From positions 1,176,520 to 1,240,519 of the forward strand of contig OY970208.1 in NCBI GenBank assembly GCA_963713865.1: 64,000 nt of DNA. Direction: 5' to 3'. The notes beneath the pieces are model-generated. The model was not told the DNA's origin. It was given only the letters and a program-made list of their open reading frames with translations, and did no database searches. Shown piece after piece: positions 17,634 to 36,581 of the stretch (its first letter is position 1; each line of letters begins with the position of its first letter). The translations under genes were made by a program, and so were the position numbers. The DNA comes from an uncultured candidate division Zixibacteria bacterium. GTDB lineage: Bacteria > Zixibacteria > MSB-5A5 > RBG-16-43-9.

Positions 17634-17825
17634 ATATACCGACACTTTGTAAAAACAGGTTCTTTGGAGTACATCCTACAGATGTAGCATCATTACGGAT
17701 GATGCACTCTATAAGTTACTATCCTGAAAGGGTCGCACTACATTTCCCCCCTCCCTGTCCGAGAAGCGGAGACTACATCTGGCGTCCTACGGACGGGCTG
17801 GCTCGTAGCCACCGTAGGATAGGAG

Positions 17826-17869
17826 AGGGACAGGGTGAGGTAAGAGAAACGAACAGACAAGATGTCTGT
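17826..17869 (+). repeat. Dispersed repeat copy: GGGACAGGGTGAGGTAA plus ACAGACAAGATGTCTGT hairpin
   Basis: See 17592 and 38772. Confidence 0.75.
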
Positions 17870-17880
17870 TCCACCAATTG

Positions 17881-18666
17881 TCAAGGTAGAAGTTCACCAC
17901 TGAAAATTGTTACTGCCTGCCCACCCAGATATACTCGATTCCCAGCTACCCGAACCTTTACAATCCCTCCACGAGCTGAAGCTTGATATGCTATAAATTC
18001 ACTCTTATTGAGCTTGCGACTCCAATAGGGTCCGAGACAGCAATGCGCCGAGCCAGTTACTGGATCCTCATTAATACCTACTGCAGGTGCAAAAAATCTT
18101 GAGACGAAATCATATCCTCTGGTAATTGCCGAGCTGGTGACAATGACGCTTCCAATTTCCGGTTTTCCCAGGATTGAAAAATCTGGTTTTAAATTTCTGA
18201 TTGACTCCTCCGATTCCAGTTCTACAAGATACATAAACCCGCATTTTCCAACATGCAGAGGTGTACTCCTTAAGCCCCTCTCAAGATCAGGTGGAGCTTT
18301 TACTGTCTCCTCATACAGGGCTGGGAAATCAAGCTCGATCCATTGGCTCTTTAATTTAGCTTTCAAAAGTCCGCTAAGGGTATGAAATTTTGCTTCTTCC
18401 TCCGCTTTCAAATATCCTTCGGTGAAAAGAATATGGGCACTGGCTAAAGTAGCATGACCGCAGAGATTAACCTCGAGCTTTGGAGTAAACCAGCGCAAAT
18501 TGTATCCCTCAGATTGTCTGAGTAAAAATGCAGTCTCGGATAAATTCATCTCACTGGCTATATTCTGCATCCAGTTTTCGTCTTTCGGTTCAGGCAATAT
18601 GCAGACTGCAGCCGGATTTCCTGAAAATGGTTTATCGGTAAAGGCATCCACCTGATAAATTTTCAC
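17881..18666 (-). CDS. PhzF-family isomerase (phenazine biosynthesis protein-like)
   Basis: MKIYQVDAFTDKPFSGNPAAVC N-terminus and length typical of PhzF/YddE. Confidence 0.85.
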   Translation of the reverse strand: MKIYQVDAFTDKPFSGNPAAVCILPEPKDENWMQNIASEMNLSETAFLLRQSEGYNLRWFTPKLEVNLCGHATLASAHILFTEGYLKAEEEAKFHTLSGLLKAKLKSQWIELDFPALYEETVKAPPDLERGLRSTPLHVGKCGFMYLVELESEESIRNLKPDFSILGKPEIGSVIVTSSAITRGYDFVSRFFAPAVGINEDPVTGSAHCCLGPYWSRKLNKSEFIAYQASARGGIVKVRVAGNRVYLGGQAVTIFSGELLP

Positions 18667-18746
18667 TTTTTGCTCCTTTAAGTTGTGTCATGAGCTACTC
18701 CTGACATTGTATTATTCTCTGTCAGGTCCGGGACCTGACAGAACTA

Positions 18747-19145
18747 CTAATTCGGCTTGCATTTACAGTGCTCCTTATACATACACTTATCCATGACTAC
18801 GGTTAAACCTGCATCCGAAGCCTTTTTAGCTGATTCCTCATTTACTATCCCTTCCTGCATCCAGATAACCTTTGCCTTGATCTTAATTGCCTGCTCTACT
18901 ACTGGAGGCACATCCTCTGATCTTCTGAAAATATCCACGATATCTATTTTATCCGGAATGGAGATTAAATCCGGATAAGATTTCTCACCTAAAATCTCTT
19001 TTTCATTCGGATTCACCGGGATAATTTTATAACCCTGGGATTGCAGATATCTTGCTACTGAATAGCTGGGCCGGGTAGGGTTGGAGGAAAGTCCTACTAT
19101 AGCTATAGTTTTGTTATCATTAAAGATTTTCTCCATTATATTCAT
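18747..19145 (-). CDS. CoA-binding domain protein (YccU-like)
   Basis: KTIAIVGLSSNPTRPSYSVARYL...IIPVNP. Confidence 0.8.
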   Translation of the reverse strand: MNIMEKIFNDNKTIAIVGLSSNPTRPSYSVARYLQSQGYKIIPVNPNEKEILGEKSYPDLISIPDKIDIVDIFRRSEDVPPVVEQAIKIKAKVIWMQEGIVNEESAKKASDAGLTVVMDKCMYKEHCKCKPN

Positions 19146-20866
19146 TTACCCTCCGTTTTATTCTTCCGTTTCCTTCTTTTTTTCGCTTTGTCAATTTTTT
19201 TCATTTCTTTTTCTATTACCTGTAAAATTCTTTTCTGCTCCTCAAAACCGATCAGCGCCTTTTCAAACACCTCCTCCATCTTTTCCACCCAGATTATTTC
19301 AAGGTCGTTTATCAATTCTTCTGGTAAATCCGGAAGATTTCTACGATTGGCTTTTGGCAGGATAATCTTTTTTATACCTACCCTCCTTGCTGCAGAGAGC
19401 TTCTCCTTGATTCCGCCGACCGGCAGGATGTTCCCCCTCAAGGATACCTCTCCGGTCATAGCTAAATCGTTTCTTATCGGCTTTTCACTCATCACCGAGG
19501 CAATTACCAGGGTAATGGTTAATCCGGCTGAAGGACCATCTTTGGGAATTGCCTCTGAGGGAAAATGGAGATGAATATCGTAATTGGTAAAATCTTTATA
19601 ATTTATACCCAAATGTGGTGCCTGTGAGCGGACGTAACTATGAGCGGTTTGGATGGTTTCACGAATGATCCCACCTAACTGACCGGTAGAGAAGATCTGA
19701 CCGCTTCCTTTCATCTTTAAACCCTCGATCAACATAATATCACCACCGGAAGCAGTCCAGGCTAAGCCGCAGGCAACCCCTACCTCAGGTTTTTTCTCTA
19801 CTATTTCCGGGATGTAGACCGGGGTGCCCAGATAGTCTGTTAAGTTCTCTTCGGTTATTCTCCAGAAATCCCCGCTTCCTGAAGCTCTCATCCATGCTAT
19901 TTTGCGGCAGATGATCTCGATCCCCTTTTGCAGATTTCTCAATCCCTCTTCGATGGCATACTCCCGGATGATCTTTTTTATAGCTTCATCTGTAATCTGA
20001 AGCTCTTTCTCTGAGAGCCCGTGTCTTTCAAGCTGAGAAGGGAGCAGGTATTTTCTGGCAATCTGCAGCTTTTCCTCCTCAATAAATCCGGTAAATTCAA
20101 TCATCTCAAAGTAATCCAGAAACGCATCCGGGATCTCCTCCGGGTTTTTAGCCGTGGCTACGAATAAGACCTGTGAAAGATCAAAGGTAAGACCTAAATA
20201 GTTATCTGTAAAACTGGAATTATGCTCTGGATCCAAAACCTCAAGCAGGGCAGAGATAACTTCCCCTTTTGGAGCTCCATTCCCTAAATTATCAACCTCT
20301 TCCAGCAGAAATAAGGGATTGTTACAGGCCGCATCTTTAAGAAGTCTCAGGATAGCACCAGGATAGCCGCTGGGGATACCAAACCTTTCTCCTTTGATCT
20401 CCTGGCTGGTGGAAAATCCAGCCAGGCTTAAGCGTACAAATTTTCGGTTTAAAGCTATAGCTATGGACTGTGCCAAGGATGTCTTCCCAGTGCCGGCTGG
20501 ACCAACAAAACATAAGATCGATCCTTTGATATCTCTTCTCAGCTGGCGGATGGAGAAATATTCACAGATTTGCTCCTTCATCTTTTTCTGCCCGAAATAT
20601 TCCTGGTCTAAAACTCTCTTCAATTTCTCCACATCTATCTCCTCGGCACAGCTTTGGGTCCAGGGCAAAGAGATCAGGTAGTCGATATATTCCCGAATCA
20701 TCTCGTATTCGCTGGAGGCGGGAGAAATGAATTTTAATCGCTTTGCTTCTAATAAGGCTTTTCTCTCCACGGGCAAAGGCAGACCTGCATCTTGAATCTT
20801 CCCATTCAGATTCCCTATCTCCTTTTTCTGCATATCCTCTATACGGTTTGTTTCTGGCTCCTCCAT
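19142..20866 (-). CDS. Lon-like ATP-dependent protease lacking the N-terminal LON substrate-binding domain
   Basis: Walker A GPAGTGKTS; Walker B region NPLFLLEEVD; S16 protease domain DGPSAGLTIT with downstream Lys; 574 aa versus about 780 for canonical Lon. Confidence 0.8.
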   Translation of the reverse strand: MEEPETNRIEDMQKKEIGNLNGKIQDAGLPLPVERKALLEAKRLKFISPASSEYEMIREYIDYLISLPWTQSCAEEIDVEKLKRVLDQEYFGQKKMKEQICEYFSIRQLRRDIKGSILCFVGPAGTGKTSLAQSIAIALNRKFVRLSLAGFSTSQEIKGERFGIPSGYPGAILRLLKDAACNNPLFLLEEVDNLGNGAPKGEVISALLEVLDPEHNSSFTDNYLGLTFDLSQVLFVATAKNPEEIPDAFLDYFEMIEFTGFIEEEKLQIARKYLLPSQLERHGLSEKELQITDEAIKKIIREYAIEEGLRNLQKGIEIICRKIAWMRASGSGDFWRITEENLTDYLGTPVYIPEIVEKKPEVGVACGLAWTASGGDIMLIEGLKMKGSGQIFSTGQLGGIIRETIQTAHSYVRSQAPHLGINYKDFTNYDIHLHFPSEAIPKDGPSAGLTITLVIASVMSEKPIRNDLAMTGEVSLRGNILPVGGIKEKLSAARRVGIKKIILPKANRRNLPDLPEELINDLEIIWVEKMEEVFEKALIGFEEQKRILQVIEKEMKKIDKAKKRRKRKNKTEGK

Positions 20867-20934
20867 TTTTTCCCTCTATCTTTGGGGTGAAGTCGGATGT
20901 TGTTTTTCTCAGTTTAAACCAACCCTCTGAGGTG

Positions 20935-20964
20935 AATATATTTTAACCTTAAATCCCTGTCAAG
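20935..20964 (-). promoter_or_regulatory. Sigma-70-like promoter for the Lon-like gene (TTGACA-N18-TATATT on minus strand)
   Basis: Read from reverse complement about 70 nt upstream of start codon. Confidence 0.45.
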
Positions 20965-21239
20965 AGGATTAGATTATAAAAATAAAAGTGGTGAGTGAAA
21001 TAAAAATTATATCCCCCTCTTCTTAGTCACCTCCCACAAGCCGATAGAAGCTTTACGGCTCGTAGAGGGAAGAGGAATATTTACATCACCCTGTCTCTCT
21101 CCTTCGAGAAGAGGAGATTAACATTACTGTTCAGACAGTTGCTACTGACGTGACTACCCGAGAAAAAAGCTGGGATAGGAGTGTAACCCCTATCCCAGCA
21201 AAATCTGCTTTCCTCTTGCAAAAGCTGTTCAATGGTGCT

Positions 21240-21923
21240 TTATTTACCCTTCTCCTTATTTTCTGTCTTCTTCTCAGATTCACTCCTCTCATACACTTTT
21301 TTCATCACCACTTTTTCCAGGGGATATGATCCTGAATCGGTCTTAACCTGGGCGATCTTATCCACTGCCTCCATCCCTTTAATCACTTTACCAAAGATTA
21401 CATAGTTACCATCCAAACTGGGAAGGTCTTTTAGACAGATGTAAAACTGGCTTCCGGCAGAGTTCGGATCCTGCGAACGAGCCATACCTAAAGACCCTCT
21501 GAGATGCTTGGTCTTTGCCTGTTCAAAAGGTATGGAATAACCTGGACCACCTCTACCAGTTCCCTCTGGATCTCCTCCCTGGATGACGAAATTGGGAACT
21601 ATGCGATGAAAAGTTAAACCATTGTAAAAGCCCTTATTTACAAGTTTCAGCATATTCCCTGCAGTTATTGGTGTTTCCTTCCAGAACAATTCAAGCTCTA
21701 TGTTCCCGAAATCGGTCTCTATGACCACGATCGGGTTTTTATCCCGGACTAACTTCTCTGTAGTATCAGCCTTAACCTTAGCTTTTCCTGTATCTGCCAT
21801 AACCTCGTTTTCTCCCATTCCGGTTTGTGAGTTTTCCTTCTTGGCGGATCCGTTCTCAGATTTACATCCAGCCATAAAAAACATTAAAATAAAAATCAAC
21901 GCAAAACATGCTATCTTCTTCAT
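21240..21923 (-). CDS. Cyclophilin-type peptidyl-prolyl cis-trans isomerase, secreted/lipoprotein
   Basis: FHRIVPNFVIQGGDPEGTGRGGPGY; N-terminal signal peptide with Cys. Confidence 0.9.
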   Translation of the reverse strand: MKKIACFALIFILMFFMAGCKSENGSAKKENSQTGMGENEVMADTGKAKVKADTTEKLVRDKNPIVVIETDFGNIELELFWKETPITAGNMLKLVNKGFYNGLTFHRIVPNFVIQGGDPEGTGRGGPGYSIPFEQAKTKHLRGSLGMARSQDPNSAGSQFYICLKDLPSLDGNYVIFGKVIKGMEAVDKIAQVKTDSGSYPLEKVVMKKVYERSESEKKTENKEKGK

Positions 21924-22239
21924 CTTTACTCCTTAAAAAGTTTTTGGGTTATCTTTCTTCCACCTTCTTTTTCAGTTCACCTCCTTTAAAGCATAATATT
22001 TTTTCATCTTCGCATTATAAAGAAATATAAAAGCAAACTGGCTTTATGTCAAGAAGTTTAGAGTTGAACAGGAACTAAACTTAGTGCAGATTTTTTTGTC
22101 AGGGGATAAGGGTACTATAGAACTTGTTTTACAGGGCTGGTCCATCCCTGGCGGATGCCTGCGATCACAGATGGTATTGGGTCTTCGTAGCTCGGGCACC
22201 CTGCCCGACTATTTAAAACTGCGTCAGGAATTTTTAAAG

Positions 22240-22270
22240 AGAGTAAGGGTTCAAAATTTTGAACTCCTAC
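22240..22270. repeat. Near-perfect palindrome agggttcaaaattttgaactcct (GGTTCAAA family)
   Basis: Compare 9708-9735. Confidence 0.65.
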
Positions 22271-22800
22271 TTCTCCGTTATCTTTATCCTGGTTAGTTTC
22301 CCTCTTTTTTCTTTAACCCTCTCTATTCCCTTATAAGCGGCTTTATTATCCGGGTTAAGTGAATAAGCTAATTGATATTGCACCTCAGATTTATCTAATT
22401 CTCCGGTCATTTCAAAGGAATAAGCCAATGAGAACCTGACCTTAGAAATAAATAGCTTGTCTCCATTTTCTACCTCCATACAAAGTTCAAACTCGGAGAT
22501 AGACTCTTTATAGTGGTCTAATTTCTGGTAGCAGAGACCTAAATAATAACGCGCTTCAAAGTTCCGGGGGTCAGCTATCACGGCCTTCTTAAATTCCTGA
22601 AGCGCGTTGGCATATTTACCCTGGTGATAAAATTTTTTCCCATTAGCCAGATGATTTTGAGAAGCGACTTCTTGGCCATAATTTCTGGTAGGTGGAGGAA
22701 GTGAAACTGGACTTGGCCTTTCTATTACTATCATCCTCTCGGCGCAGTTCAAGGAGAACAATAAAAGCAAAATTGAAAAAAGATTGAATATTCTTAACAT
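22267..22800 (-). CDS. TPR-repeat secreted/lipoprotein
   Basis: Signal peptide; TPR-like helical repeats (YYLGLCYQKL..., AYSLNP...). Confidence 0.5.
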   Translation of the reverse strand: MLRIFNLFSILLLLFSLNCAERMIVIERPSPVSLPPPTRNYGQEVASQNHLANGKKFYHQGKYANALQEFKKAVIADPRNFEARYYLGLCYQKLDHYKESISEFELCMEVENGDKLFISKVRFSLAYSFEMTGELDKSEVQYQLAYSLNPDNKAAYKGIERVKEKRGKLTRIKITEK

Positions 22801-22850
22801 ATCCCTCCTTTCGGTCTTTATAATTATATCGGAAATAAGAGGATTTACTT

Positions 22851-24030
22851 TTAAGCTTTTTTTCCTGACGGATCCATTTCTGACAAAACCCAGATTAGTT
22901 TTTCTATATCCTCAAGTGAATTGTAGAAATGAGGAGATACTCGTATTGAGTTCTCCCTGAAGGAGGTCAGTATTTTTTTCTGTGAAAGAGCTCGGTGCAG
23001 TTTTGGACAATTTTTACCAGAAAAAGAAAGTATACCTGATCGGTACAGGGGCTCAAGTGAGCTTTTGATCTGGTAAGGGGTATTTTTTAGATAATCTATT
23101 AGAAGGTCTAAAAGTTTTATGACCTGATTCTCGATAGCTTTAGTTCCAATTTCGGATATAAGCTCTAAAGAGGAACACATCGTCCATAGATTTGAAAAAG
23201 GGTAAGTCCCTATCTCAAACCTTCGACTGGAGGAGAAGCGGGGAAGGTCATATTTCAAAAGATCAGAGAAATTCAATTTCCAGTCAACACTCATCCAGCC
23301 GAAAAAAGCAGGATCGATTTTCATCTTAGCATTATCTGAAAGATAGAAAAAGCCTGTGCCCAGAGAGGAGAGCAGCCACTTCTGACCTCCACAGGCTAAG
23401 AAATCTATTTTACATTTTTTAACATCTAAATCCAGAACAGCCTACTCCCTGGATTCCATCTACAACAAAGAAAATATTTTTTTCCTCACAGATTTTTCCA
23501 ATAGTCTCCAAGTTATTTTTAAAACCATTGAAAAACTGAACATAGGTTATCGATAAGACTTTGCACTTTGAATCGATAGCTTTAAGGAGATCATCTATGC
23601 AAAAAAAACCGTTCTGGCTTTTAATAAATTTTATCTTCACGCCCTTCTTTTTCAGATTCAGCCAAGGATAAACATTTGCCGGAAACTCCACATCTGAAAG
23701 CAAAACCTTATCCCCATATTTAAAGTCCAGTCCATTTGCCACGATATTTAAACCATAAGAAGTGTTGGGCACCAATCCAATTTCTTTCGGTTTTGCGTTT
23801 ACCATTTTAGCCAGATATATTCTGATCTGGTCCATCATCTCAAAAGTCAACTTATCCATATCCACAACTTTTTTAAGGGTCAAAGCATCATAATATTCCA
23901 TTGTTTTTTTCAAAGCTCTTAAAGGAATGGGACCAAATGAGGCGTGATTAAGAAAATTAACTTTTTGGGTGAAGGGGAATTCCCTTCTGTATCTTGCTAA
24001 CTCTTTTGATTTGGTCTTTCTTAGAGCCAT
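22851..24030 (-). pseudogene. Class V aminotransferase (cysteine desulfurase / epimerase-like), interrupted by a frameshift near 23420-23440
   Basis: N-part (23419-24030) ends ...VDGIQGVG; an alternative frame continues VLDLDVKKCKIDFLACGGQKWLLSSLGTGFFY (PLP-Lys region) into the C-part ORF (22851-23324, IRVSPHFYN). Confidence 0.6.
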
Positions 24031-25008
24031 TTATTCTCCTTATACCATTTTATAGTTTCTAAAGCACCCTTTTCTAAATCATACTCCGGCGAAAATCCTA
24101 ATTCATTTTTTGCTTTTGAAATGTCGCAGAGCCAGTACCTCTGGCTTAGCTCATTTGCTTTCTGAAGATTTACCAGAGCAGATTCCCCTTTCAGGTGAGA
24201 GACCATTTCGGAGAAAGAGGCAAATGTGAACAAAAAGAATTTAGGGATTCTTAATTTAAAAGCTCTTATACCTAAGGATTTCTGGATGATCTTTCCAGCT
24301 TCTGTCCAGGAATAAACCTTTTCATCTGCTATAAAGTAGATCTGTCCGGAACTCTTTTGGTTTTCTGCGGTTAAAATTATCCCCCGGGTTAAATCTTTAA
24401 CATATATCAGGGAAATATAACTTTCTTTGAATCCAAAGAGAGGAATTATCCTTTTGTTCACCGTCTGGAAAAAAAATAAAATATCTTTATCTCTTGGACC
24501 ATAAACCGCAGGTGGTCGAACTATAGTAACCGGAAACTTCTCCTTAAAACTCAATACCTCTTTTTCTCCCTGAAGCTTACTTCTGCCATAATCGGTGATC
24601 GGCTCGCATTTTGCATCTTCATTTAAAGGGTAAAAATCTTTGCAGGGACCAACTGCGGCTTGACTGCTGACATAAACAAACTTCTTAATATGAGAATTGA
24701 TCTCCAGAACAGGTTTGAATCAGGTTTTTAGTTCCCTGGGCATTTGCTTTAAAATAATCCTCTTTATTTTTCGCTCGGGTTAAACCAGCCAGATGGAAAA
24801 CGAAATCTACCCCTTCTAAAGCTTTTCTTAAGGACTCAACCTCTGTTATATCTCCGTATCTATATTCAGTTTCCAGTCCTGAAAGAAAACTTAAGTTGCT
24901 CGTTTTCCTGACCAGGCAGAAAACCTCATAACGCTTGTTTAACAGAGCTTCAACTAAATGGCTCCCCACAAATCCATTTGCACCGGTAACTAAGGCTTTA
25001 GGGCTCAA
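24021..25008 (-). pseudogene. NAD-dependent epimerase/dehydratase-family (extended SDR) protein, interrupted by a frameshift near 24670-24700
   Basis: N-part VTGANGFVGSHLV Rossmann motif; shifted frame continues KKFVYVSSQAAVGPCKDFYPLNEDAK...FPVTIVRPPAVYGPRD. Confidence 0.6.
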
Positions 25009-25152
25009 GTTTTCCTTTTCCTAATTACTGTACGGTAAAGCTTTAGCTTTACTTTCAAAGAATTTTGGGTAAACCTAAAGGCTTACACCGCAAAATATCT
25101 TTCAGAACATTGAGACGTAGGCAGTGCTTCTCTACTTATTTAAAATTTTCTC

Positions 25153-25181
25153 TTGACATTCTTTTTAAAAAAACTTAAATA
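25153..25181 (+). promoter_or_regulatory. Sigma-70-like promoter (TTGACA-N17-TAAATA) upstream of the SPT-like gene
   Basis: Hexamers read from sequence about 110 nt upstream of ATG at 25290. Confidence 0.4.
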
Positions 25182-25289
25182 AATCCTGATTTGTGAAGAT
25201 ATTAAACTTAAAACAGCTTTGCAAGTTAAAACTGAAGACTAAATTTTAAAAAGCCGGTAAATGCATTTCGGCTCGTAGAGAGGTAAAAG

Positions 25290-26471
25290 TTGGATCTGTT
25301 CGAAAAGTGCAAAAGGTTTACCGAGGCAAAAAAGGTAATGGCAACTGGCTATTACCCTTTTTTCATCCCCATATCCTCCGGACAGGATACCCAGGTAACG
25401 GTGCGGGGGAAAGAGATGATAATGATAGGCTCCAATAACTACCTGGGCTTGACCTCTCACCCTGAGGTTAAACAGGCGGCTATAGATGCCATCAAAATCT
25501 ACGGCTCCGGCTGTACCGGCTCTCGCTTCTTAAACGGAACCTTAGATATTCACGAGGATCTGGAAAGAAAGTTAGCCCAGTTTATGAACAAAGAATCTGC
25601 CCTTGTTTTCTCTACCGGATTCCAAACCAACCTGGGCACTATCTCTGCCTTAGTCAACAAAGGGGAATATATCATAACCGACAGGTCTGACCATGCCAGC
25701 ATAGTGGATGGATGCCGGCTTTCCTTTGGCAAGGTTTTGAAGTTCAGACACAATAACATGTCAGATTTAAAAAGGGTCCTTTCCACCTGTCCTAAACATT
25801 CCGGAAAACTTATCGTGATAGATGGAGTCTTCAGTATGGAGGGGGATATAGCCAAACTGCCGGATATAGTGGAACTGGCCAGGAAATACCACATGCGGGT
25901 TATGGTGGATGATGCCCATTCCATCGGGGTACTGGGTAAAAATGGCAGAGGTACGGCTGAGCATTTTAAATTAGAAGATGAAGTGGATATCATAATGGGG
26001 ACATTCTCCAAATCTTTTGCCTCCATCGGAGGATTTATTGCGGCCAAAGAAGAGGTTATCCATTATATAAAACATTTCTCTAGGGCATTGATTTTCTCAG
26101 CCAGTCCACCACCGGCTGCAGTTGCCACAGTTTCCAAAGCTTTAGACATAATCATTGCAGAGCCAGAGAGAAGAGAAAGACTCTGGCAAATAGCCCGCAA
26201 GATGCACGAGGGTTACAGAGCATTAGGATTTGATATCGGAGATACCGAAACTCCGATAATCCCGATACTAATCGGTGAAAATATGAAGACCTTCAAGTTC
26301 TGGAAGCTGCTTTTCGATGAGGGGATCTTCGCCAATACCGCCATCAGCCCCGCAGTCCCACCCGGCACCGCCCGCATCCGCACCAGCTACACCGCCACCC
26401 ATACCGATGATCAGATGAATAGAGTCTTAGAAGTTTTTGAAAAAGTGGGGAAAAAGATGGGGGTAATATAA
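25290..26471 (+). CDS. Alpha-oxoamine synthase (AONS family); most similar by motif to serine palmitoyltransferase
   Basis: GSGCTGSRFLNGT, VDDAHSIGVLGKNGRG, GTFSKSFASIGGF (PLP-Lys), PPGTARIRTSYTATHT; the SPT versus KBL/BioF distinction is from recalled motifs only. Confidence 0.75.
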   Translation: MDLFEKCKRFTEAKKVMATGYYPFFIPISSGQDTQVTVRGKEMIMIGSNNYLGLTSHPEVKQAAIDAIKIYGSGCTGSRFLNGTLDIHEDLERKLAQFMNKESALVFSTGFQTNLGTISALVNKGEYIITDRSDHASIVDGCRLSFGKVLKFRHNNMSDLKRVLSTCPKHSGKLIVIDGVFSMEGDIAKLPDIVELARKYHMRVMVDDAHSIGVLGKNGRGTAEHFKLEDEVDIIMGTFSKSFASIGGFIAAKEEVIHYIKHFSRALIFSASPPPAAVATVSKALDIIIAEPERRERLWQIARKMHEGYRALGFDIGDTETPIIPILIGENMKTFKFWKLLFDEGIFANTAISPAVPPGTARIRTSYTATHTDDQMNRVLEVFEKVGKKMGVI

Positions 26472-26507
26472 AGAAAGTTTAAAGGTTCAAAAGTTCAAGG
26501 GAAAAAG
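26471..26507 (+). repeat. Post-stop motif AAGAAAGTTTAAAGGTTCAAAAGTTCAAGGGAAAAAG
   Basis: Nearly identical motif immediately after stop codons at 4013, 26471 and 62821. Confidence 0.7.
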
Positions 26508-26511
26508 AATG

Positions 26512-26672
26512 ATATGGAATGCATCCCGCCATAGGCGAGGCTCGCTAAAGGCGGCATCCGTGATGATGCTTTGGTTCGGGAATTGGAATTCCCGAACCAA
26601 CTTTAAAAAATATTTTGAGTGCATCCCGCCTTTGGCAGGATGCAGGCATTAACACGGTTAATGCACTCCAAA
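26512..26672. repeat. Composite intergenic repeats (GCATCCCGCC...GGCGG hairpins; CATTAAC-acg-GTTAATG palindrome; GAGTGCAT...ATGCACTCC)
   Basis: Related copies at 16670-16745, 27775-27800, 38871-38938. Confidence 0.6.
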
Positions 26673-26679
26673 TAAATAT

Positions 26680-27768
26680 ATGCCTAAACTTATAAAAAAA
26701 CGCTCTGAAAAAGCCGGGCTTCCGCCGGGGAGTCTGGTACACATCGGGGAGAAGAGGGTCGAGGAAGTAAAAATAACCATAATCGATTACGATGAAACCC
26801 ATTTTCAGGAAAAAGAGGTAAAAGCGATTGACGAATGCTTCATCTTTAAGGATAAGCTTACTGTTACCTGGATAAATGTGGAGGGGATACATCAAGTCGA
26901 TATCTTAGAGAGATTAGGCGAGTGCTATGGATTCCATCCCCTTATCTTAGAAGATATCTTGAACACGGACCAGCGCCCGAAAATGGAGAATTTCGGTGAG
27001 TATCTCTATATCGTCCTGAAAATGCTTTACCCGAATAACAAAAATACTCCTGCGGATCCAAAAGCAGAAGAAATAGTAACCGAGCAGATAAGTTTGATCC
27101 TGGGCACTAATTTTGTCATCTCTTTCCAGGAAGGGATGAAAGGAGATGTGTTCGAGCCGGTTAGGGAGCGGCTCAGGAGCTCCAAAGGGCTGATAAGGAA
27201 AATGAGAGCAGATTATTTAGCTTATTCCCTGATGGATGCCATCGTGGACAACTATTTTATAATTCTGGAAAAGCTCGGAGATAAAATAGAGTTCCTGGAG
27301 GAGAAATTAATCGCCAGTCCAGGCTCAGAGACTCTAAAGACAATTCATGACTTAAAAAGGGAGATGATCTTCTTGCGTAAATCGGTATGGCCATTAAGGG
27401 AGGTGCTGGGCGCTTTGGAAAGAGGTGATTCCTCTCTGGTCCAGGATTCAACCCGCATCTACGTAAGAGATATTTACGACCATACCATTCAGGTCATAGA
27501 TACAATAGAGACTTTCCGGGATATGCTTTCCGGGATGCTGGATATATATCTTTCCAGTGTGAGCAATAGATTGAATGCGGTGATGAAGGTATTGACTATA
27601 ATCGCTACAATATTTATGCCGCTCACCTTTCTGGCTGGAATCTACGGGATGAATTTTAAATTTATGCCAGAACTTGAGTGGCGCTGGGGTTATCTTTTAA
27701 TCTGGATGGTTATGCTTGGCATCGGGGTTTTTATGCTTTTTTATTTTAAGAAAAAGAAGTGGTTATGA
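26680..27768 (+). CDS. corA: Magnesium/cobalt transporter CorA
   Basis: YGMNF signature before two C-terminal TM helices; 362 aa. Confidence 0.9.
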   Translation: MPKLIKKRSEKAGLPPGSLVHIGEKRVEEVKITIIDYDETHFQEKEVKAIDECFIFKDKLTVTWINVEGIHQVDILERLGECYGFHPLILEDILNTDQRPKMENFGEYLYIVLKMLYPNNKNTPADPKAEEIVTEQISLILGTNFVISFQEGMKGDVFEPVRERLRSSKGLIRKMRADYLAYSLMDAIVDNYFIILEKLGDKIEFLEEKLIASPGSETLKTIHDLKREMIFLRKSVWPLREVLGALERGDSSLVQDSTRIYVRDIYDHTIQVIDTIETFRDMLSGMLDIYLSSVSNRLNAVMKVLTIIATIFMPLTFLAGIYGMNFKFMPELEWRWGYLLIWMVMLGIGVFMLFYFKKKKWL

Positions 27769-28127: not shown

Positions 28128-29156
28128 ATGAAAATGACTAAGACGAAAATAATCTGTACCTTGGGACCCTCGAGCGGAAATGTCAAGGTGCTGAAAAAGA
28201 TGATGTTAGCCGGGATGGAGGTAGCAAGGCTTAATTTTTCTCATGGGAACTCTGCGGAACATCAAAACCGAATAAATCTAATAAAAGGTTTGAATAGTAA
28301 ATATAAACGCAATATAAAGATATTGCAGGACTTAGAAGGCTACCGGATAAGAATCGGCAGGTTCAAGGATAAAAAAGAAATTGAATTAAAAAAAAGACAG
28401 ATTGTTCTGTTAACTAATAAAGATCAAGCAGGAGATAAAGAGATTATACCATTCGATTACCAGGGTGAATTAAGCGATATCAAAATTGATAGTTTCATCT
28501 ATATAGACGATGGATATATCGCTCTAAAAGTAAAATCCAGGTCCAGGAATTATATCCAAGCAGAGGTAGTTATTCCGGGGGTCTTAAAGGAAAACAAGGG
28601 GGTTAATATTCCAGGAGCCAATTTGAGATTTAAAGATTTAACCGAAAAAGATAGAACGGATTTAAGATTTGGTATAAAAAATAAAGTGGATTTTATTGCC
28701 CAGTCGTTTGTAAGAAACAAACAGGATATTAAAAACATCAGAGATTTCATCCGGGGCAACGATTTTAACTGCCGGATTATTGCCAAGATCGAAAACCAGG
28801 ACGGGATCAGGAATATCGACAAGATATTGGAAGTGTCTGACGGTATCATGGTCGCGCGGGGAGATATGGGAGTCTCTTTGCCCATATATGAGGTTCCAAT
28901 ATGGCAGAAGATTATAATAGAAAAATGTAACCTTGAAAATAAATTTGTCATCACCGCTACCCAGATGCTGGAAAGTATGACCGAACATATAAGGCCAACG
29001 CGGGCAGAGGTAAGCGATGTGGCTAATGCGATAATGGATGGATCTGATTATTTGATGCTTTCGGCTGAGACGGCAGTTGGAAAACTTCCGGTTGAGGCAG
29101 TGAAGATGATGCACCAGATTATCAAATATACTGAAAAGTTCCTGAAGAAGGATTGA
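28128..29156 (+). CDS. Pyruvate kinase, short form lacking the C-terminal regulatory domain
   Basis: [48 protein letters not shown]; ends after the TIM-barrel domain at 342 aa. Confidence 0.8.
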
Positions 29157-29407: not shown

Positions 29408-29480
29408 ATGCGCCTTGCAGGAATCGAACCTGCGACCCACTGATTAAGAGTCAGTTGCTCTACCAGCTGAGCTAAAGGCG
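29408..29480 (-). tRNA. tRNA-Lys: tRNA-Lys (anticodon CTT)
   Basis: Reverse complement folds as cloverleaf: acceptor GCGCCTT/AAGGCGC, D-arm GCTC-AGCTGGT-AGAGC, anticodon stem ACTGA/TCAGT with loop CTCTTAA, T-arm GCAGG-TTCGATT-CCTGC, discriminator A; CCA not encoded. Confidence 0.95.
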
Positions 29481-29749
29481 CAATTTATCTATAATATTAG
29501 CCAAACTCTAAAAGTTTAGCTGCATAATTCAAAACAGCTCAATCTTCTTTCAAATATAGTGCATCAAAAGGATTTTTGTCAAGCTTTTTCCAGAGAAGAC
29601 CTCTGAAAAGCTCGTAATGCGGGGCTGGGAGCCCAGCCTACGAGGATTTTAAGCGGAGAGATTAGTAGTTGCTCGATTTGTCAAGCTAAAAATACCTATT
29701 GAATCAGGTAACTGTATATTAAAAAATGTTATTAATCGATTTGGGGGTT

Positions 29750-31147
29750 TTACTTTTGAGGGACCTGAAGCTGATATTGTTTCATCTTGAATCTCAGGCT
29801 GGACTCAGGTATTTTCAAAGCTTGAGCGGCAAATTTTTTCACCCAGTTATTTTCGATCAAGGCCTTAAGAAGATACTGTTTCTCTAATAAGGAGAGCCTC
29901 TCATATAAAGATAGACTCTCTTTTTTGAATTCTTTGGGCAGAGGGAACTTATCCGATAGTAGCTCTTCCAACTTGAATTCGTCGCTCTGGCTGTAAGCTA
30001 AAATACGCTTGGTCTCATTTTCTAACTCCCGTACATTCCCGGGCCAATCATATTCAGAACAGAGCTCCAGGATTAAAGGTTTTAAAGAGAACGCCTTCTG
30101 GTCTCCTTTAGAATGGGTTTTTATGAAATAGTCAACTAAAAGAGGTATATCTTCTCTTCTTTCCTTTAAAGGGAGAAGCTTGAGATTAACTGCATTCAAT
30201 CTAAAATAAAGGTCCTTGCGGAAGCGGCCTTGTGCGACTTCTTCTTCTAAATTCTTATTGGTGGAAGCGACAATCCGGATGTCGATCTTCTTGGGTTTGG
30301 TCTCTCCTAAGCGGGTGATAACCTTCTCCTCCAGTACTCTAAGTAGTTTTACCTGAATAGATGGGCTTAAATCTCCGATCTCGTCTAAATAAAGAGTTCC
30401 TCCATCCGCTTCCTCGAAAAGCCCCTTTTTGTCAAAGGTGGCACCGGTATAGGAACCTTTCTTATGCCCGAAGAGTTCGGATTCTAACAAAGGCTCAGGC
30501 AGAGCCGCACAGTTAACAGCCACAAAATTCTTATCTTTACGGTTGCTGGAATAATGCAATGCCTTAGCCAAGAAGTCTTTACCTGTTCCGGTCTCCCCTT
30601 CGAAAAGGACCGAGAGATTAGTATCCTTGATCTGCTCCAGCTTCCACAAGATCTTGAGCATCTGACTGTTGCGGGTGATGATCTGGGAGAAGGAGCATCT
30701 TTCTTCCAAAAGCTTTCTTAACCTTAAATTATCTTCCTGCAGATTTCTCTTCTGAAGCTCAGAGAGTTTCAAAGCTAACAGATCCGAAAAGGCTACTGCG
30801 AAATTCAGCTCTTTCTGGGTGAAGGATGAAATATCATTAACCCGGTCAAGATAGATGAAGCCGCAGACCTCCTCTCCGGTTAAAAGAGGTATGAGCAGGA
30901 GAGAGTTTATCTTCCCATTTTCTAAAACCTTCTGAACAGATGTGGGGTGAGTAAAGATCAAAGGCTTAAAGAGATTATCCTTAGTATCAGCAGAGGAGAG
31001 ATTAAAGGAATTAGAAGGGACTAAACTCTTAGCCAGATTCCTGGCTTTGTCTGGCTCGATGTTATAGAGTGAAGGGCAAGAAGGCTCTTCTGCTACTCCG
31101 TTTCTATAAACTATAAAACCTCTTTCAGCCTGAATCTTAGAAGCCAA
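29750..31147 (-). CDS. Sigma-54-dependent transcriptional activator (GAF-like sensor, AAA+ domain, C-terminal HTH)
   Basis: GETGTGKDFLAKALH Walker A; ESELFGHKKGSYTGA (GAFTGA-type motif); C-terminal Fis-type HTH. Confidence 0.85.
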   Translation of the reverse strand: MASKIQAERGFIVYRNGVAEEPSCPSLYNIEPDKARNLAKSLVPSNSFNLSSADTKDNLFKPLIFTHPTSVQKVLENGKINSLLLIPLLTGEEVCGFIYLDRVNDISSFTQKELNFAVAFSDLLALKLSELQKRNLQEDNLRLRKLLEERCSFSQIITRNSQMLKILWKLEQIKDTNLSVLFEGETGTGKDFLAKALHYSSNRKDKNFVAVNCAALPEPLLESELFGHKKGSYTGATFDKKGLFEEADGGTLYLDEIGDLSPSIQVKLLRVLEEKVITRLGETKPKKIDIRIVASTNKNLEEEVAQGRFRKDLYFRLNAVNLKLLPLKERREDIPLLVDYFIKTHSKGDQKAFSLKPLILELCSEYDWPGNVRELENETKRILAYSQSDEFKLEELLSDKFPLPKEFKKESLSLYERLSLLEKQYLLKALIENNWVKKFAAQALKIPESSLRFKMKQYQLQVPQK

Positions 31148-32645
31148 AACTATTAATCTTTCTTCCAGAACTTCCTTCCTGTATATCCTGATATTCAGTA
31201 TCAGAGAAGTACTTCCTGAAAAGCTTGAATTCGTTTTCCGAGGAAAGGCTTTTCAGGCTTAAACTCTTTTCTATTTCATCCCGCAAATCACTGCAAAGGG
31301 AAAGATTCTCCTTTTCTTCAAGTTCTTCAAATATTTTTTCAGCTTTATTCAGAGAATAGAGAGAGTTTTCAAAATTTTCCTGTTCAAGTTCAAGTTTAGC
31401 ATGAGTAAACTCAGTTAATCCTTCAAGATATCTCAAATTCAATTCAGCGGAAAGCTTCTTCGCCTTTCCCAAACAATTCAGTTTTTCCGGATAATCGAAA
31501 CCCTGGTTACGAGATAAGGAGATATATACCTTGATCTGCTCATATTTAGCATCGATTTCCTCTAAGAGGCTAACCCCTTTCTCAAAGGCTTCTCTGGCTT
31601 TATCCTTTTCATTTTTCAGGCTGTAGATTTCGCCGGAGATCTTATAAGCCAATCCCTCCTCTAATTTTTCACCCAAGGCTTTAGAAACTTTTAAGGATTT
31701 CTCAACATCCTCTGAGGCTTTTTCTAATTCATTTCCCCTTAGCTCTAACTCGGCTAAAAGCCTGTAGCTCTGGCTGATAATGCCACCTTCTGGTGCTATC
31801 TTTTCTCCGATTTTAATAGCATTCAGATAACAGGATTTAGCCTCCTCTAACTTTTTCTGTTGAAAATATAGTTCCCCTTGATACTCGTAATAGATGGCTA
31901 AATCTCTTAAGGATTCGTTTCTGCTAAGAAGCTGAAAAGCTCGGAGAAAATAGGAAGAGGCTTTTTTAAACTCTCTTTTTAAAATCTTAAGATAACCTAG
32001 GGAGAGGAGGCAACGAGATAAATTAATTTTCTGGCCAGCATTCTTAGTTTCCTTTATGTTGGATAAAAGATGCTTTTCAGCTAAGTCCAGTTCACCGCTC
32101 AGGGTGTAAATTCTACCCAAGTTTCTCTGGAATATACCGAGGGTTACCCAATCCCGGCTTTTTTCTAAATAGGAGATGCATTCCTTAAGGTATTCTACAG
32201 CCTGCACATAATCCGAACGGATGAAACAGATCTGGGCAAGTTTGTTATAGCTCTGGACAATCCCTCTCTCCTCGTCTATCCTTCTACAAGTGGCAATTGA
32301 ATCCCTGAACTCATTTTCTGCCTGTTTCAATCTCCCTGAAGCAAGATAAGATTTGCCCAGGATTGATTGTACCTGGGCAATCCTTTTGTTCTCTATGGTG
32401 TTCCTGAAGAGTTCAAAAGATTTTTTACCGCTCTCCAGCGATTCGTCGTATCTGCCCAGACCGTATAATGCCACTGCGGAAAGATAATAGAATACCCCCA
32501 TATCCAAAGAGCTGGTATTTAAACCTCCTTGGGTTTCAACCTCCTTGAGCTGTTGCCCGGCCTCCTTGAATTTATCTTTTTCTAAGAGGTGTTCAATCTG
32601 CTCAAGTCTTTCCTTAATTGATAAACCTTCTAATTTCTCCTTCAT
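31137..32645 (-). CDS. TPR-repeat protein
   Basis: 502 aa with repeated TPR-like units; overlaps start of the sigma-54 activator gene. Confidence 0.55.
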   Translation of the reverse strand: MKEKLEGLSIKERLEQIEHLLEKDKFKEAGQQLKEVETQGGLNTSSLDMGVFYYLSAVALYGLGRYDESLESGKKSFELFRNTIENKRIAQVQSILGKSYLASGRLKQAENEFRDSIATCRRIDEERGIVQSYNKLAQICFIRSDYVQAVEYLKECISYLEKSRDWVTLGIFQRNLGRIYTLSGELDLAEKHLLSNIKETKNAGQKINLSRCLLSLGYLKILKREFKKASSYFLRAFQLLSRNESLRDLAIYYEYQGELYFQQKKLEEAKSCYLNAIKIGEKIAPEGGIISQSYRLLAELELRGNELEKASEDVEKSLKVSKALGEKLEEGLAYKISGEIYSLKNEKDKAREAFEKGVSLLEEIDAKYEQIKVYISLSRNQGFDYPEKLNCLGKAKKLSAELNLRYLEGLTEFTHAKLELEQENFENSLYSLNKAEKIFEELEEKENLSLCSDLRDEIEKSLSLKSLSSENEFKLFRKYFSDTEYQDIQEGSSGRKINSFGF

Positions 32646-34160: not shown

Positions 34161-34817
34161 ATGGAAAAAGAACTTAAAGTTTTTATGCAAAGATGTTACA
34201 ATTCGGTCCTGGAGGGGAATAAAGAGGAGGTTATAAAGTTATCCAGAGAAGCTATTAAATTAAAATACGACCCCTATCTTGTAGTTGAGAAAGGTCTGGT
34301 CGAAGGCATTAAGAAGTTAGGAAAAGAATGGGAGCAGGGGAGTTGTTTTCTACCTGAACTGGTCTTAGGAGCAGAGGCGGTAAAGGCTGGTATCTCAATT
34401 CTACAAAAACAGATTTTAAAAGTAAAGGCTGAAAAGAAAAGATTGCCCCGGCTGATAATCGGCACCATCGAAGGGGATATACATGATATCGGAAAGATGT
34501 TGGTTGCCACTATGCTCTCAGCCAACGGGTTTGAGGTGATCGATTTAGGCGTGGATGTCAAAGCTGAGGTTTTTGTCAAATCTGCAAAAAGGTACGAGCC
34601 GAAATTCCTCTGTATTTCGTCTTTACTTACTACTACTATGCAGAATGAGATTCAGGTCATGGAGGGATTAAAAAAAGCTAATCTAAGAAAAAAGATCAAA
34701 GTTATGGTGGGTGGGGCACCAGCCAGCCAGGGCTGGGCAAAAGAGATCGGAGCAGATTTCTACGGGGAGAATGCTATTTCAGCAGTAAAAATTGCTCGAA
34801 AAGAGATGAGCGAATGA
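34161..34817 (+). CDS. Cobalamin-binding corrinoid protein (B12-binding cap plus Rossmann domain)
   Basis: GDIHDIGK (DxHxxG B12 motif), helical cap N-terminus. Confidence 0.8.
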   Translation: MEKELKVFMQRCYNSVLEGNKEEVIKLSREAIKLKYDPYLVVEKGLVEGIKKLGKEWEQGSCFLPELVLGAEAVKAGISILQKQILKVKAEKKRLPRLIIGTIEGDIHDIGKMLVATMLSANGFEVIDLGVDVKAEVFVKSAKRYEPKFLCISSLLTTTMQNEIQVMEGLKKANLRKKIKVMVGGAPASQGWAKEIGADFYGENAISAVKIARKEMSE

Positions 34818-35725
34818 AAGGAACGCAAGGTAAAAAATCTATATTAGAATTGGGCAGGGAAAAGGTGGTTTTATTGGATGGGGCAATGGGAACGATGCTT
34901 TTCTCTGCGGGTCTGCCCTACAATAAACCGCCTGAACTGTGGAACCTTTCACATCCAGAAATAATTTTAAAGATTCACCAGAGATATATCCGGGCAGGTG
35001 TAGATATAATCCAGACCAATACTTTCGGAGCAAGCAGCCTGAAGTTAAAAAAATCAGGAAATGAAAAGAAGGTGGGGAAAATCAATCTATCTGCAGTGAG
35101 GATTGCAAATGAAGCCTGTCCGGTTGACAAGTATGTTGCCGGGAATATCGGACCCAGCGGTGAATTTTTTGAGCCTTTAGGTAAGGCAAAATTTAGAGAG
35201 CTAAAAAAAGTTTTTTCCAGACAGGCTGAACTGCTTTTGGGAGGTGGAGTTGACCTTTTTTCTATTGAGACGATGTTTGATTTAAGAGAAGCCTTATCCG
35301 CAGTTGAAGGAGTTAGGGAAGTATCTTCACTTCCCCTTTTCATCTGTATGACCTTTGAAAAAAAAATCAAGGGGTATTTTACGCTGATGGGGGATGAGGT
35401 TTCATTCTCTTTGAAAAAGCTCGAAGAGGCAGGTGCGGATGTGGTTGGGGCTAACTGTACCCTGGGTAGTGCAGAGATGATAGGATTGATCCCGGTAATG
35501 AAGAAAAGCACAAATCTACCGCTAATAGTTCAGCCAAATGCTGGAAAACCGGTGATTCGCAAAGGGAAAACGGTTTATCTTCAAAAACCAGATTCTTTTG
35601 CTAAGGATATATTTAGGATGATAAAGTCAGGGGTTAATTTTGCAGGAGGGTGCTGTGGCACTACCCCGGAATTTATTAGAAAGATTAAGGAAGGTTTGGA
35701 AAACTGTGAAAGACGGAAGTGCTGA
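34814..35725 (+). CDS. Homocysteine S-methyltransferase-domain protein (MetH N-terminal domain-like, Zn-thiolate)
   Basis: VLLDGAMGTML, ANCTLG, GGCCGTTPEFI Zn-ligand cysteines. Confidence 0.8.
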   Translation: MKGTQGKKSILELGREKVVLLDGAMGTMLFSAGLPYNKPPELWNLSHPEIILKIHQRYIRAGVDIIQTNTFGASSLKLKKSGNEKKVGKINLSAVRIANEACPVDKYVAGNIGPSGEFFEPLGKAKFRELKKVFSRQAELLLGGGVDLFSIETMFDLREALSAVEGVREVSSLPLFICMTFEKKIKGYFTLMGDEVSFSLKKLEEAGADVVGANCTLGSAEMIGLIPVMKKSTNLPLIVQPNAGKPVIRKGKTVYLQKPDSFAKDIFRMIKSGVNFAGGCCGTTPEFIRKIKEGLENCERRKC

Positions 35726-35932
35726 GTAGTAAAGGGTGTAGAGACGCATTGCTATGCGTTTCTACGAAAGAATAATCGCGTAAGGGTGGGTGAAGAGCTG
35801 GTTGAGCGAAGCGAAATCCCGCTTTAGCGGGATCTCCACCCTTCACCCTTGTCAGGTCGGGGGACCTGACAAACACTGAGTATTTTTTAATGATTAAAGC
35901 TAAAGCTTTACACTCCAGTTTGAAGATAAAAT

Positions 35933-36571
35933 ATGTTTGAGATAATTGAGAATTTCAAGGTAACAGTTGATCATAAGGAAATATTAAGGCTTTTAGGGCA
36001 TACCCCAGAAGATAAAAAGATAAAAGATAGCTCAAGGAAATTGATTGTGGAGATGATAGAGCTTTCTTTTGAGCTGACTAAACCTAAAGGGATTTATACT
36101 GTCAAAGATATAAAAGAATTGCCAGAAGAATGCTCTTTTAACTCAGGTGAAAAAGTTGCATTCGGAATATCTACTATCAGTGAGAAGTTAGAGAAAAAGG
36201 TTAAGAGTTTAAGTTCTAAGGGTGAACAAACCAGAGCGGTTATTTTGGATGCCATTGGTTCTGTGGCGGCTGAATATACAGCAGAATATCTGAATCAGAT
36301 TATCATAGATAAAGCTGAAGAAGATAATCTATATCATAGCCCCAGGTTCAGTCCGGGATATGGAGGATGGAAGTTAGAAGGGCAGAGACTTATCTTCAAT
36401 TTATTACCAGCAGAAAAGATCAGAGTGAGTTTAAATCAATTTTATATGATGGTACCTAAAAAATCGGTCTCCTTTGCAGTTAATTTGAGCAGAAATCGTT
36501 TTAAAGGGAAAAACCTGTCACCCTGCGAAATCTGTGGATTAAAAGAGTGCCATTTTAAAAAAGAAAAATGA
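35933..36571 (+). CDS. Methionine synthase activation-domain-like protein (putative reactivation component)
   Basis: 212 aa; RFSPGYGGW and MVPKKSVSF segments resemble the MetH activation domain as I recall it; tentative. Confidence 0.4.
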   Translation: MFEIIENFKVTVDHKEILRLLGHTPEDKKIKDSSRKLIVEMIELSFELTKPKGIYTVKDIKELPEECSFNSGEKVAFGISTISEKLEKKVKSLSSKGEQTRAVILDAIGSVAAEYTAEYLNQIIIDKAEEDNLYHSPRFSPGYGGWKLEGQRLIFNLLPAEKIRVSLNQFYMMVPKKSVSFAVNLSRNRFKGKNLSPCEICGLKECHFKKEK

Positions 36572-36581
36572 AGGAGGGAAC

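Follow-up and report, generated by a model that had tools for sequence, protein, structure and literature searches.

A 64,000-nucleotide stretch of DNA from an uncultured candidate division Zixibacteria bacterium (contig OY970208.1; the whole stretch is called the window, and its G+C content is ~40%) carries a gene for a serine palmitoyltransferase (SPT)-like alpha-oxoamine synthase (AONS) that is divergently paired with genes for an extended short-chain dehydrogenase/reductase (SDR) and a pyridoxal phosphate (PLP) enzyme. Our analysis indicates that this locus is probably the Zixibacterial version of the bacterial sphingoid-base/ceramide pathway. Bacterial sphingolipid synthesis has been worked out only recently, and the Caulobacter-type pathway of Spt, bCerS and CerR is said to have been described by Stankeviciute et al. 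in 2022. These three proteins form the triad of the bacterial ceramide pathway (PMC11087976, PMC11324152), and Spt-like genes have been reported in ~40 phyla (PMC11334938). We found no literature report linking Zixibacteria to sphingolipids, and the phylum was not found in two supplementary files of a Black Sea study of these lipids (PMC11334938). The four proteins on which the argument turns are encoded as follows:

25290 to 26471, + strand: SPT-like AONS, 393 amino acids (aa) from a TTG start, with predicted PLP lysine K241 (in TFSKS), stacking H135, D207/H210 and R364
24021 to 25008, - strand: extended SDR, 3beta-HSD/HpnA/OleD-like, 328 aa after removal of one A at 24708/24709
22851 to 24030, - strand: class V fold PLP enzyme of the SufS/CsdA/C-DES branch, 392 aa after removal of one A at 23436/23437
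766 to 1899, - strand: putative tandem-GNAT N-acyltransferase, 377 aa, 23.4 kb from the SPT gene

The positions of the first three of these open reading frames (ORFs) had been given correctly in a first-pass annotation of the window, as the ORF listing confirms, and Pfam and NCBIfam both agree with the AONS, SDR and class V PLP families that it had named. The AONS is assigned to the alpha-oxoamine synthase superfamily of fold-type I PLP enzymes (PF00155, 209.7 bits), and its residues K241, H135, D207, H210 and R364 align with K244, H138, D210, H213 and R367 of the Sphingobacterium multivorum SPT (SmSPT). Its best NCBIfam model is NF047600, SPT-CFB (the Bacteroidota-type SPT), which it matches over its full length at 569.5 bits and which leads the next family by 122 bits (TIGR01825 at 447.8, followed by SPT-beta at 426, KBL at 410 and BioF at 400). 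Every one of these scores falls under the curated cutoff of the family concerned, and because this includes the SPT-CFB score we call the protein SPT-like or SPT-type and not an NF047600 equivalog. A phmmer search of the PDB places SmSPT (3A2B/8GUH) first at 443 bits, ahead of Sphingomonas SPT (SpSPT) at 330, Thermus BioF/KBL at 312, E. coli KBL at 284, the cysteate acyltransferases at 255-258 and BioF at 217. Sequence identity is 52.5% to SmSPT over 387 residues aligned without a gap, 39% to E. coli KBL and 32% to BioF. The first-pass annotation had preferred an SPT over KBL or BioF and proposed phylogenetic placement as a check; in a small neighbor-joining tree with no more than four outgroup or reference sequences, the clade of Zixibacterial proteins branches with SmSPT first, next with SpSPT and after that with KBL, which groups the AONS with the two solved SPTs. 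Model scores, PDB ranks, this tree and the active site all favor the SPT reading. An identical database protein, P0001, also exists.

The active site was compared at the positions that contact PLP and L-serine in crystal structures of SmSPT (PMC10196870). Alignment finds 14 of 15 identical in the AONS (N52, G80, S81, H138, S185, D210, A212, H213, T241, S243, K244, F272, A274 and R367 in SmSPT numbering), the sole change being M271 to Ile, a residue also present in S. paucimobilis SPT, and these SPT active-site residues are kept in eight Zixibacterial orthologues. Lys281 of SulA, which is Ala in SPT, is the residue reported to set cysteate acyltransferases apart (PMC9304779). We matched this position to SmSPT A274 by motif-based inference, and the column holds Ala271 (in an FSAS motif) in the AONS, Asn in KBL and Thr in BioF. 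A cysteate acyltransferase (SulA/CapB) identity was rejected on this Ala and on the scores of only 255-258 bits to SulA/CFAT structures. Two motifs that had been quoted in support of an SPT are both present in the translation (YGSGCTGSRFLNGT and VPPGTARIRT) and fare differently. The first is indeed SPT-like, as the AONS contains GSRFLNG and GSRxLNG is common to both solved bacterial SPTs, whereas the 'ARIRT' of the second is not SPT-diagnostic because it is identical in E. coli KBL and the same columns in the solved SPTs read SLIRF and FLLRC. Compared with SmSPT as a system of the NF047600 type, the AONS is of near-equal length, has the same contacts apart from M271I and would likewise be a soluble homodimer-type enzyme; it differs in scoring below the equivalog cutoff, in its KBL-like 'ARIRT' and in coming from another phylum (Zixibacteria). 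Taken as a whole, the AONS appears to be an SPT-type enzyme that is closer to characterized SPTs than to KBL, BioF, ALAS, CqsA or cysteate acyltransferases.

Support of a new kind for the SPT reading comes from a tandem-GNAT gene that is co-operonic with the SPT gene in relatives. A family of ORFs of 377-383 aa lies directly downstream of the SPT gene in L018 and L028 (loci from relatives carry an L number throughout), and with L092 and L093 included a GNAT gene follows SPT in four related loci; these downstream proteins are 56-67% identical to the product of window ORF 766-1899. Besides L018 and L028, two metagenome contigs show an SDR gene divergent from SPT-GNAT, with gaps of 13 and 332 nt. 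Both halves of the 766-1899 protein give a weak PF00583 signal, NCBIfam has no match for it, and an AlphaFold2 model (pLDDT 81) is matched by Foldseek to tandem-GNAT amine N-acyltransferases, among them glucosamine N-acetyltransferase and MshD. The protein is put forward as a candidate ceramide-synthase-type partner of the SPT. An N-acyltransferase encoded together with spt, as bCerS is, is found in the relatives, while in the window the two genes lie 23.4 kb apart. The occurrence of GNAT directly after SPT in four related loci indicates an ancestral cluster of SPT, N-acyltransferase and reductase, whereas in the lineage of the window the GNAT gene was displaced from it by 23.4 kb. The search for ceramide synthase and acyl-carrier genes that the first-pass annotation had suggested thus yielded this tandem-GNAT candidate for the former and, in the annotated parts of the window, no acyl carrier protein (ACP).

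The SDR gene, which as assembled is in two pieces on the - strand (24685-25008 and 24021-24554), is the divergent neighbor of the SPT gene in 13 loci. Its membership of the NAD-dependent epimerase/dehydratase family, claimed in the first-pass annotation, is borne out by Pfam (PF01370/PF01073). Full-length matches are to HpnA (153.8 bits), OleD-type 2-alkyl-3-oxoalkanoate reductases and the sterol enzyme SdmB, all far below cutoffs, and the best solved relative is the uncharacterized oxidoreductase 3WJ7 at 114 bits. Structures of SDR-type threonine dehydrogenases reach ~39 bits and align in the Rossmann part only, and NDUFA9 chains match weakly at 35-38 bits, as against 114 for the best PDB match. 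The protein carries TGANGFVGSHL, VRK after beta2 and YGRSK, and a comparison of 17 orthologues shows conservation of the GxxGxxG, the Ser, the YxxxK and the Arg that directly follows beta2. Its N-terminus reads MSPKALVTGANGF, with the Rossmann motif beginning at residue 6, and inspection reveals no signal peptide. Motifs of this sort are associated among SDRs with NADPH-dependent reductases, and these features fit a cytoplasmic enzyme of that type better than an NAD+-retaining epimerase/dehydratase. As is asked of a CerR, the protein is predicted to be a Rossmann-fold NAD(P)-binding reductase encoded beside spt. In sister lineages the SDR is followed by a 142-aa four-helix membrane protein. 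This protein of ~4 transmembrane (TM) helices is encoded between the SDR and PLP enzyme genes of sister Zixibacteria/FCB (for example L026:5555-5983), is fused to the SDR C-terminus in L023 (4504-5982) to give 492 aa, and is absent from the window's lineage. The presence of a 4-TM protein after or fused to the SDR points to a membrane lipid substrate.

The third enzyme is assigned to the class V fold on the strength of PF00266 matches to both of its assembled pieces (23419-24030 and 22851-23324, - strand) and of a PLP lysine, K216, that together with D190 and Q193 is invariant in the family alignment. The lysine sits in GGQKW, and both carboxylate-binding arginines are invariant as well. The protein scores 134.9 bits against the NCBIfam SufS subfamily, which is below cutoff, and 112 bits against PDB 5B7S; C-DES (1ELQ) can be aligned along its entire length. 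The GHHCA segment of 5B7S and 6A6E, which contains the catalytic cysteine, aligns to a gap with 'ENSI' in its place, and no conserved Cys occurs at the desulfurase loop site in 16 or 42 family members. A cysteine desulfurase identity (SufS/CsdA type II) was rejected since the RxGHHCA loop with the active-site cysteine is deleted. An AlphaFold2 model (pLDDT 77) retrieves SufS, PvdN and C-DES as top Foldseek matches at TM ~0.78, which reconfirms the fold and gives no sharper function. The enzyme resembles SufS/CsdA, the Synechocystis C-DES cystine lyase and PvdN in this fold similarity, in the PLP lysine, in the Asp...Gln pair and in the carboxylate-binding arginines, with identities of 21-26% only. 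In lacking the persulfide-cysteine loop it is unlike the SufS/CsdA desulfurases and like C-DES, and where type II desulfurases have the PLP-stacking His motif EHHxN it has EFPAN. The protein had been described as a class V aminotransferase; the class V fold stands, but what we find is a Cys-less relative of SufS and C-DES and not a demonstrated aminotransferase. Its conserved residues suggest that it probably still acts on an alpha-amino acid. We know of no described sphingolipid pathway that contains such a PLP enzyme.

A scan of a genome collection with the PLP enzyme family returned 80 loci, which were searched by tblastn and clustered by ORF family. L001 to L004 keep the layout in which the SPT gene diverges from the SDR-PLP enzyme pair, and so do nine genome loci, with SPT identity falling as low as 65%; in those nine the SDR gene either overlaps the PLP enzyme gene or directly adjoins it. 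In the window these two genes share 10 nt, the PLP enzyme start lying ahead of the SDR stop.

These observations are consistent with a pathway of four steps. In the first, for which the sequence evidence is strong, the soluble PLP-dependent SPT encoded at 25290-26471 would condense L-serine (possibly also L-alanine) with a long-chain acyl thioester, releasing CO2 and forming a 3-keto long-chain base. In the second, the extended SDR would act as a cytoplasmic NADPH-type ketoreductase and reduce the C3 ketone, with the free base or its N-acylated form as substrate, as suggested by gene linkage, cofactor motifs and the membrane-anchored forms in sister lineages. The tandem-GNAT protein (766-1899) may then N-acylate the amino group to give a (dihydro)ceramide. 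Finally the PLP enzyme, which is translationally coupled to the SDR and in which the alpha-amino-acid-binding residues are retained, probably provides, removes or modifies a substrate of amino-acid type for this lipid.

The proposed pathway shares with the Caulobacter type a condensing enzyme, an N-acyltransferase and a Rossmann-fold reductase that are clustered, the SDR being divergent from SPT-GNAT in relatives; it differs in having no ACP or acyl-ACP synthetase genes in the annotated window parts and in its extra PLP enzyme, and the two are likened by function and not through reference sequences. Caulobacter CerR is periplasmic (PMC11087976) and NDUFA9-like, whereas the SDR described here has no visible signal peptide and an NADPH-type motif. 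The 3-ketosphinganine reductase of B. thetaiotaomicron, BT_0972, is a classical SDR of ~31 kDa that is unlinked to the SPT gene (PMC9278070). The reaction proposed for the SDR would be the one that BT_0972 carries out, a cytoplasmic reduction of the C3 ketone with NADPH, although the protein here is a 328-aa extended SDR that adjoins the SPT gene. The sulfonolipid/capnine pathway (SulA/CapB plus a reductase; PMC9304779) offers a parallel from the FCB superphylum of an AONS followed by a ketoreductase, and differs at SulA Lys281, which is Ala here, and in the 255-258 bits of the SulA/CFAT structures. The E. coli kbl-tdh and bioF-bioA pairs involve the same AONS superfamily, and BioF followed by BioA is a precedent for a second PLP enzyme that processes an AONS product. 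They differ from the window in identity (39% and 32%), in active-site signature and in partner genes.

Several observations weigh against a sphingoid-base/ceramide pathway. The literature search turned up no lipid data for any Zixibacterium, the 569.5 bits to SPT-CFB fall short of the trusted cutoff of 640 so that serine specificity is not guaranteed, and the annotated parts of the window hold no ACP, acyl-ACP synthetase or head-group gene. In addition, the SDR-PLP pair occurs without an SPT gene within 6 kb in seven loci (L021, L023, L024, L026, L027, L030 and L031, all of the form SDR-(4-TM)-PLP), and several Zixibacteria and other phyla have the PLP enzyme by itself. Since the pair is found without SPT, the link between SDR and PLP enzyme is tighter than that between PLP enzyme and SPT. 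The SDR-PLP operon could be a separate membrane-lipid or envelope module that merely lies beside SPT in one Zixibacterial clade, with the real ketoreductase encoded elsewhere, and we regard this as unlikely. The loci without SPT adjoin Memo-AMMECR1 and GDSL-lipase genes, and the best named family of the SDR is the uncharacterized, hopanoid-associated HpnA. Distant PLP enzyme homologues in other phyla (35-39% identity) stand alone beside glycosyltransferase and nucleotidyltransferase genes. Those of the Poribacteria, at 35-38% identity, were observed in L035 and ~25 other loci within a conserved gene row of a sugar-phosphate nucleotidyltransferase, a GT2 glycosyltransferase, a 6PGDH-like dehydrogenase, a DUF4861 protein and a TPP enzyme fragment, which suggests a different, glycan-related role for these homologues. 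Set against a separate module is the divergent pairing with SPT, which persists from 99% down to 65% SPT identity with the shared intergenic block conserved. Moreover, a reductase is the one function that would otherwise be missing beside SPT and GNAT in L092, L093, L018 and L028.

It is also conceivable, though we think it quite improbable, that the SPT-like enzyme takes another amino-acid substrate and that the product is a non-canonical amino-lipid (for example alanine-derived 1-deoxy long-chain bases, or a base that is sulfonolipid-like or comes from some other amino acid), with the PLP enzyme making or editing the amino acid. The score below the SPT equivalog cutoff would allow for this, as would the coupling of a conserved PLP enzyme with alpha-amino-acid-binding arginines to the reductase. 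Cys-less mutants of CsdA-type enzymes still turn cysteine sulfinate into alanine. Anaerobic bacteria make abundant 1-deoxy-, sulfono- and lysine-ceramides whose genetic basis is unknown (PMC11334938). However, the serine and PLP contact residues of SmSPT are conserved with the exception of M271I, the marker Lys of the cysteate acyltransferases is Ala, those enzymes score far lower, and nothing direct ties the PLP enzyme to substrate supply. A related and equally doubtful proposal is that Zixibacteria and nearby FCB possess a previously undescribed tailoring module, in which a cytoplasmic, membrane-associated NADPH-dependent extended SDR is translationally coupled to a Cys-less SufS/C-DES-type PLP enzyme and the two, together with the SPT, would make a non-canonical long-chain base. 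If true, this could be an alanine-derived 1-deoxy base, a sulfur-bearing base or one with another amino modification, like those observed in euxinic waters for which no genes are known.

The first-pass annotation had correctly pointed out that the SDR and PLP enzyme genes are both frameshifted in this assembly. Each contains one extra A, and these are most likely artefacts. Each break lies in a copy of one 10-mer (23431-23440 and 24703-24712), which reads TCCAG[A]ACAG on the + strand or CTGT[T]CTGGA on the coding strand and has 2 occurrences in the window versus 0.14 expected. An independently assembled Logan contig from the public run ERR10755944 is 99.97% identical to window positions 17781-27675 (9.9 kb), the sole differences being one mismatch and the two extra A bases. 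In this contig, as in every relative examined, the SDR is intact at 328 aa (for example in L004, L001 and L002) and so is the PLP enzyme, at 392 aa (or 385 aa). Against the 96%-identical relative L001, the two A gaps are the only indels in 4.26 kb. A third gene, for a TPR, GAF and sigma-54 activator protein (29750-32645, - strand), is split in the same manner at TTCCAG[A]ACTTCC, with the extra A at ~31169; it encodes 964 aa in relatives L001, L005 and L006, and ORFs of 502 and 465 aa in the window. When all same-strand ORF junctions were scanned, CCAGAAC was found at four only (23432, 24704, 31165 and 40698), three of which were verified against relatives as a one-base insertion of A. Elsewhere, 18 other CCAGAAC sites and two intact TCCAGACAG sites (35216 and 59161) are in frame. 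The fourth junction lies in a region (40211-41921, - strand) with ORFs of 416 and 130 aa that have no Pfam or NCBIfam match; removing one A of CCCCAGAAC at 40698 would merge them into ~576 codons, and this junction, for which look-ups returned no record, is probably a fourth instance of the artefact.

The extra bases most likely represent a motif-linked consensus or basecalling error and not pseudogenes, a conclusion drawn from assembled sequence and not from reads. Consensus errors at modified bases occur in long-read data, and the CCAG[A]AC artefact possibly sits at a DNA-modification motif. Read in this way, the breaks require the SDR and PLP enzyme genes to be treated as intact, and automatic annotation would wrongly label genes broken at CCAG[A]AC as pseudogenes. 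That the frameshifts are instead real, with the SDR and PLP enzyme genes being fresh pseudogenes of a decaying or phase-variable pathway, seems improbable. The insertions are present in the window sequence, and that in the sigma-54 activator gene is also found in Logan contig L007 from the same run, which leaves some room for real mutations and counts with the points raised above against an operating pathway. On the other side, a contig from the same population is otherwise identical and has neither of the two insertions, the recurrence of one heptamer at four junctions points to a systematic process and not to independent mutations, and no other disabling changes are present in the two genes, as seen in the comparison with L001.

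The remaining alternative, that of kbl with an SDR-type threonine dehydrogenase in threonine catabolism or of BioF in biotin synthesis, shares the enzyme family and the 'ARIRT' of E. coli KBL and still draws 400-410 bits from the models, but it is hardly credible given that both scores are under their own cutoffs and ~160 bits under the SPT model, that the KBL/BioF residues at SmSPT S243 and A274 (G/N and G/T) are not present, that the SDR has so little similarity to SDR-type threonine dehydrogenases, that no bio genes are nearby and that a GNAT N-acyltransferase partner makes no sense in either pathway. KBL was rejected at 410 bits against a cutoff of 460 (NF005394) and 342 against 493 (TIGR01822), and BioF at 399.9 against 426.45 (TIGR00858), with no bio genes among the annotated window ORFs. 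The kbl and threonine dehydrogenase pair, which had been offered as the alternative to a lipid locus, accordingly falls on scores, active site and partner genes alike.

The locus is best filed as a system of known type in Zixibacteria, with one conserved accessory gene, that of the Cys-less SufS-like enzyme, beyond the described pathways. It provides a clean and testable gene set of SPT, tandem-GNAT acyltransferase and extended SDR for an uncultured, sediment-dwelling phylum. The Black Sea study reported abundant 1-deoxy-, sulfono- and lysine-ceramides without assigned tailoring genes (PMC11334938), and there might be a link between the PLP enzyme and the unusual ceramides, 1-deoxy and sulfur-bearing, that occur in anoxic environments.

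Two further features belong to the locus itself:

25138 to 25241, strand unassigned: conserved intergenic block of ~100 nt, inside the 281-nt divergent region 25009-25289
22267 to 22800, - strand: TPR protein of 177 aa with TPR matches and an N-terminal signal or lipoprotein-like leader

Alignment shows the intergenic block to be conserved across the intergenic regions of six relatives (AONS identity 83-99%). It contains TTGACA-17-TAAATA pointing toward the SPT gene and probably comprises back-to-back promoters or an operator. A generic promoter and terminator scan around the locus performed no better than on shuffles, and an Rfam scan of the entire window found one tRNA and nothing else. The TPR gene comes after the PLP enzyme gene in the operon divergent from SPT, 50 nt downstream of it, and a TPR gene also follows the PLP enzyme gene in L008, L009, L010 and L015, with a longer TPR protein in L011.

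Elsewhere in the window, a class I/II aminotransferase at 12204-13433 was considered as a second AONS and rejected, as it is LL-diaminopimelate aminotransferase. A pyruvate kinase ORF at 28128-29156 (+ strand) encodes only 342 aa, comprising the barrel domain alone without the C-terminal domain, and is followed on the opposite strand by a tRNA gene (29409-29481, - strand). A corrinoid methyltransferase cluster at 34161-38060 (+ strand) encodes a B12-binding protein, an S-methyltransferase (PF02574), a Met_synt_B12-like protein and an MttB-family protein, and is conserved beside the SPT locus in L001 and L002. The MttB-family protein is full-length at 492 aa with no internal stop, and is perhaps a non-pyrrolysine homologue for a quaternary amine such as glycine betaine. 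An M1-family peptidase at 42390-44603 (- strand) combines a He_PIG Ig-like domain with a C-terminal dockerin type I, and another dockerin protein is encoded in relative L005; such domains are unusual in bacteria other than the Firmicutes that form cellulosomes. Finally, a stand-alone EpsI/exosortase-associated domain protein (DUF3485) at 5670-6314 (- strand) hints at an exosortase/PEP-CTERM-type sorting system nearby.

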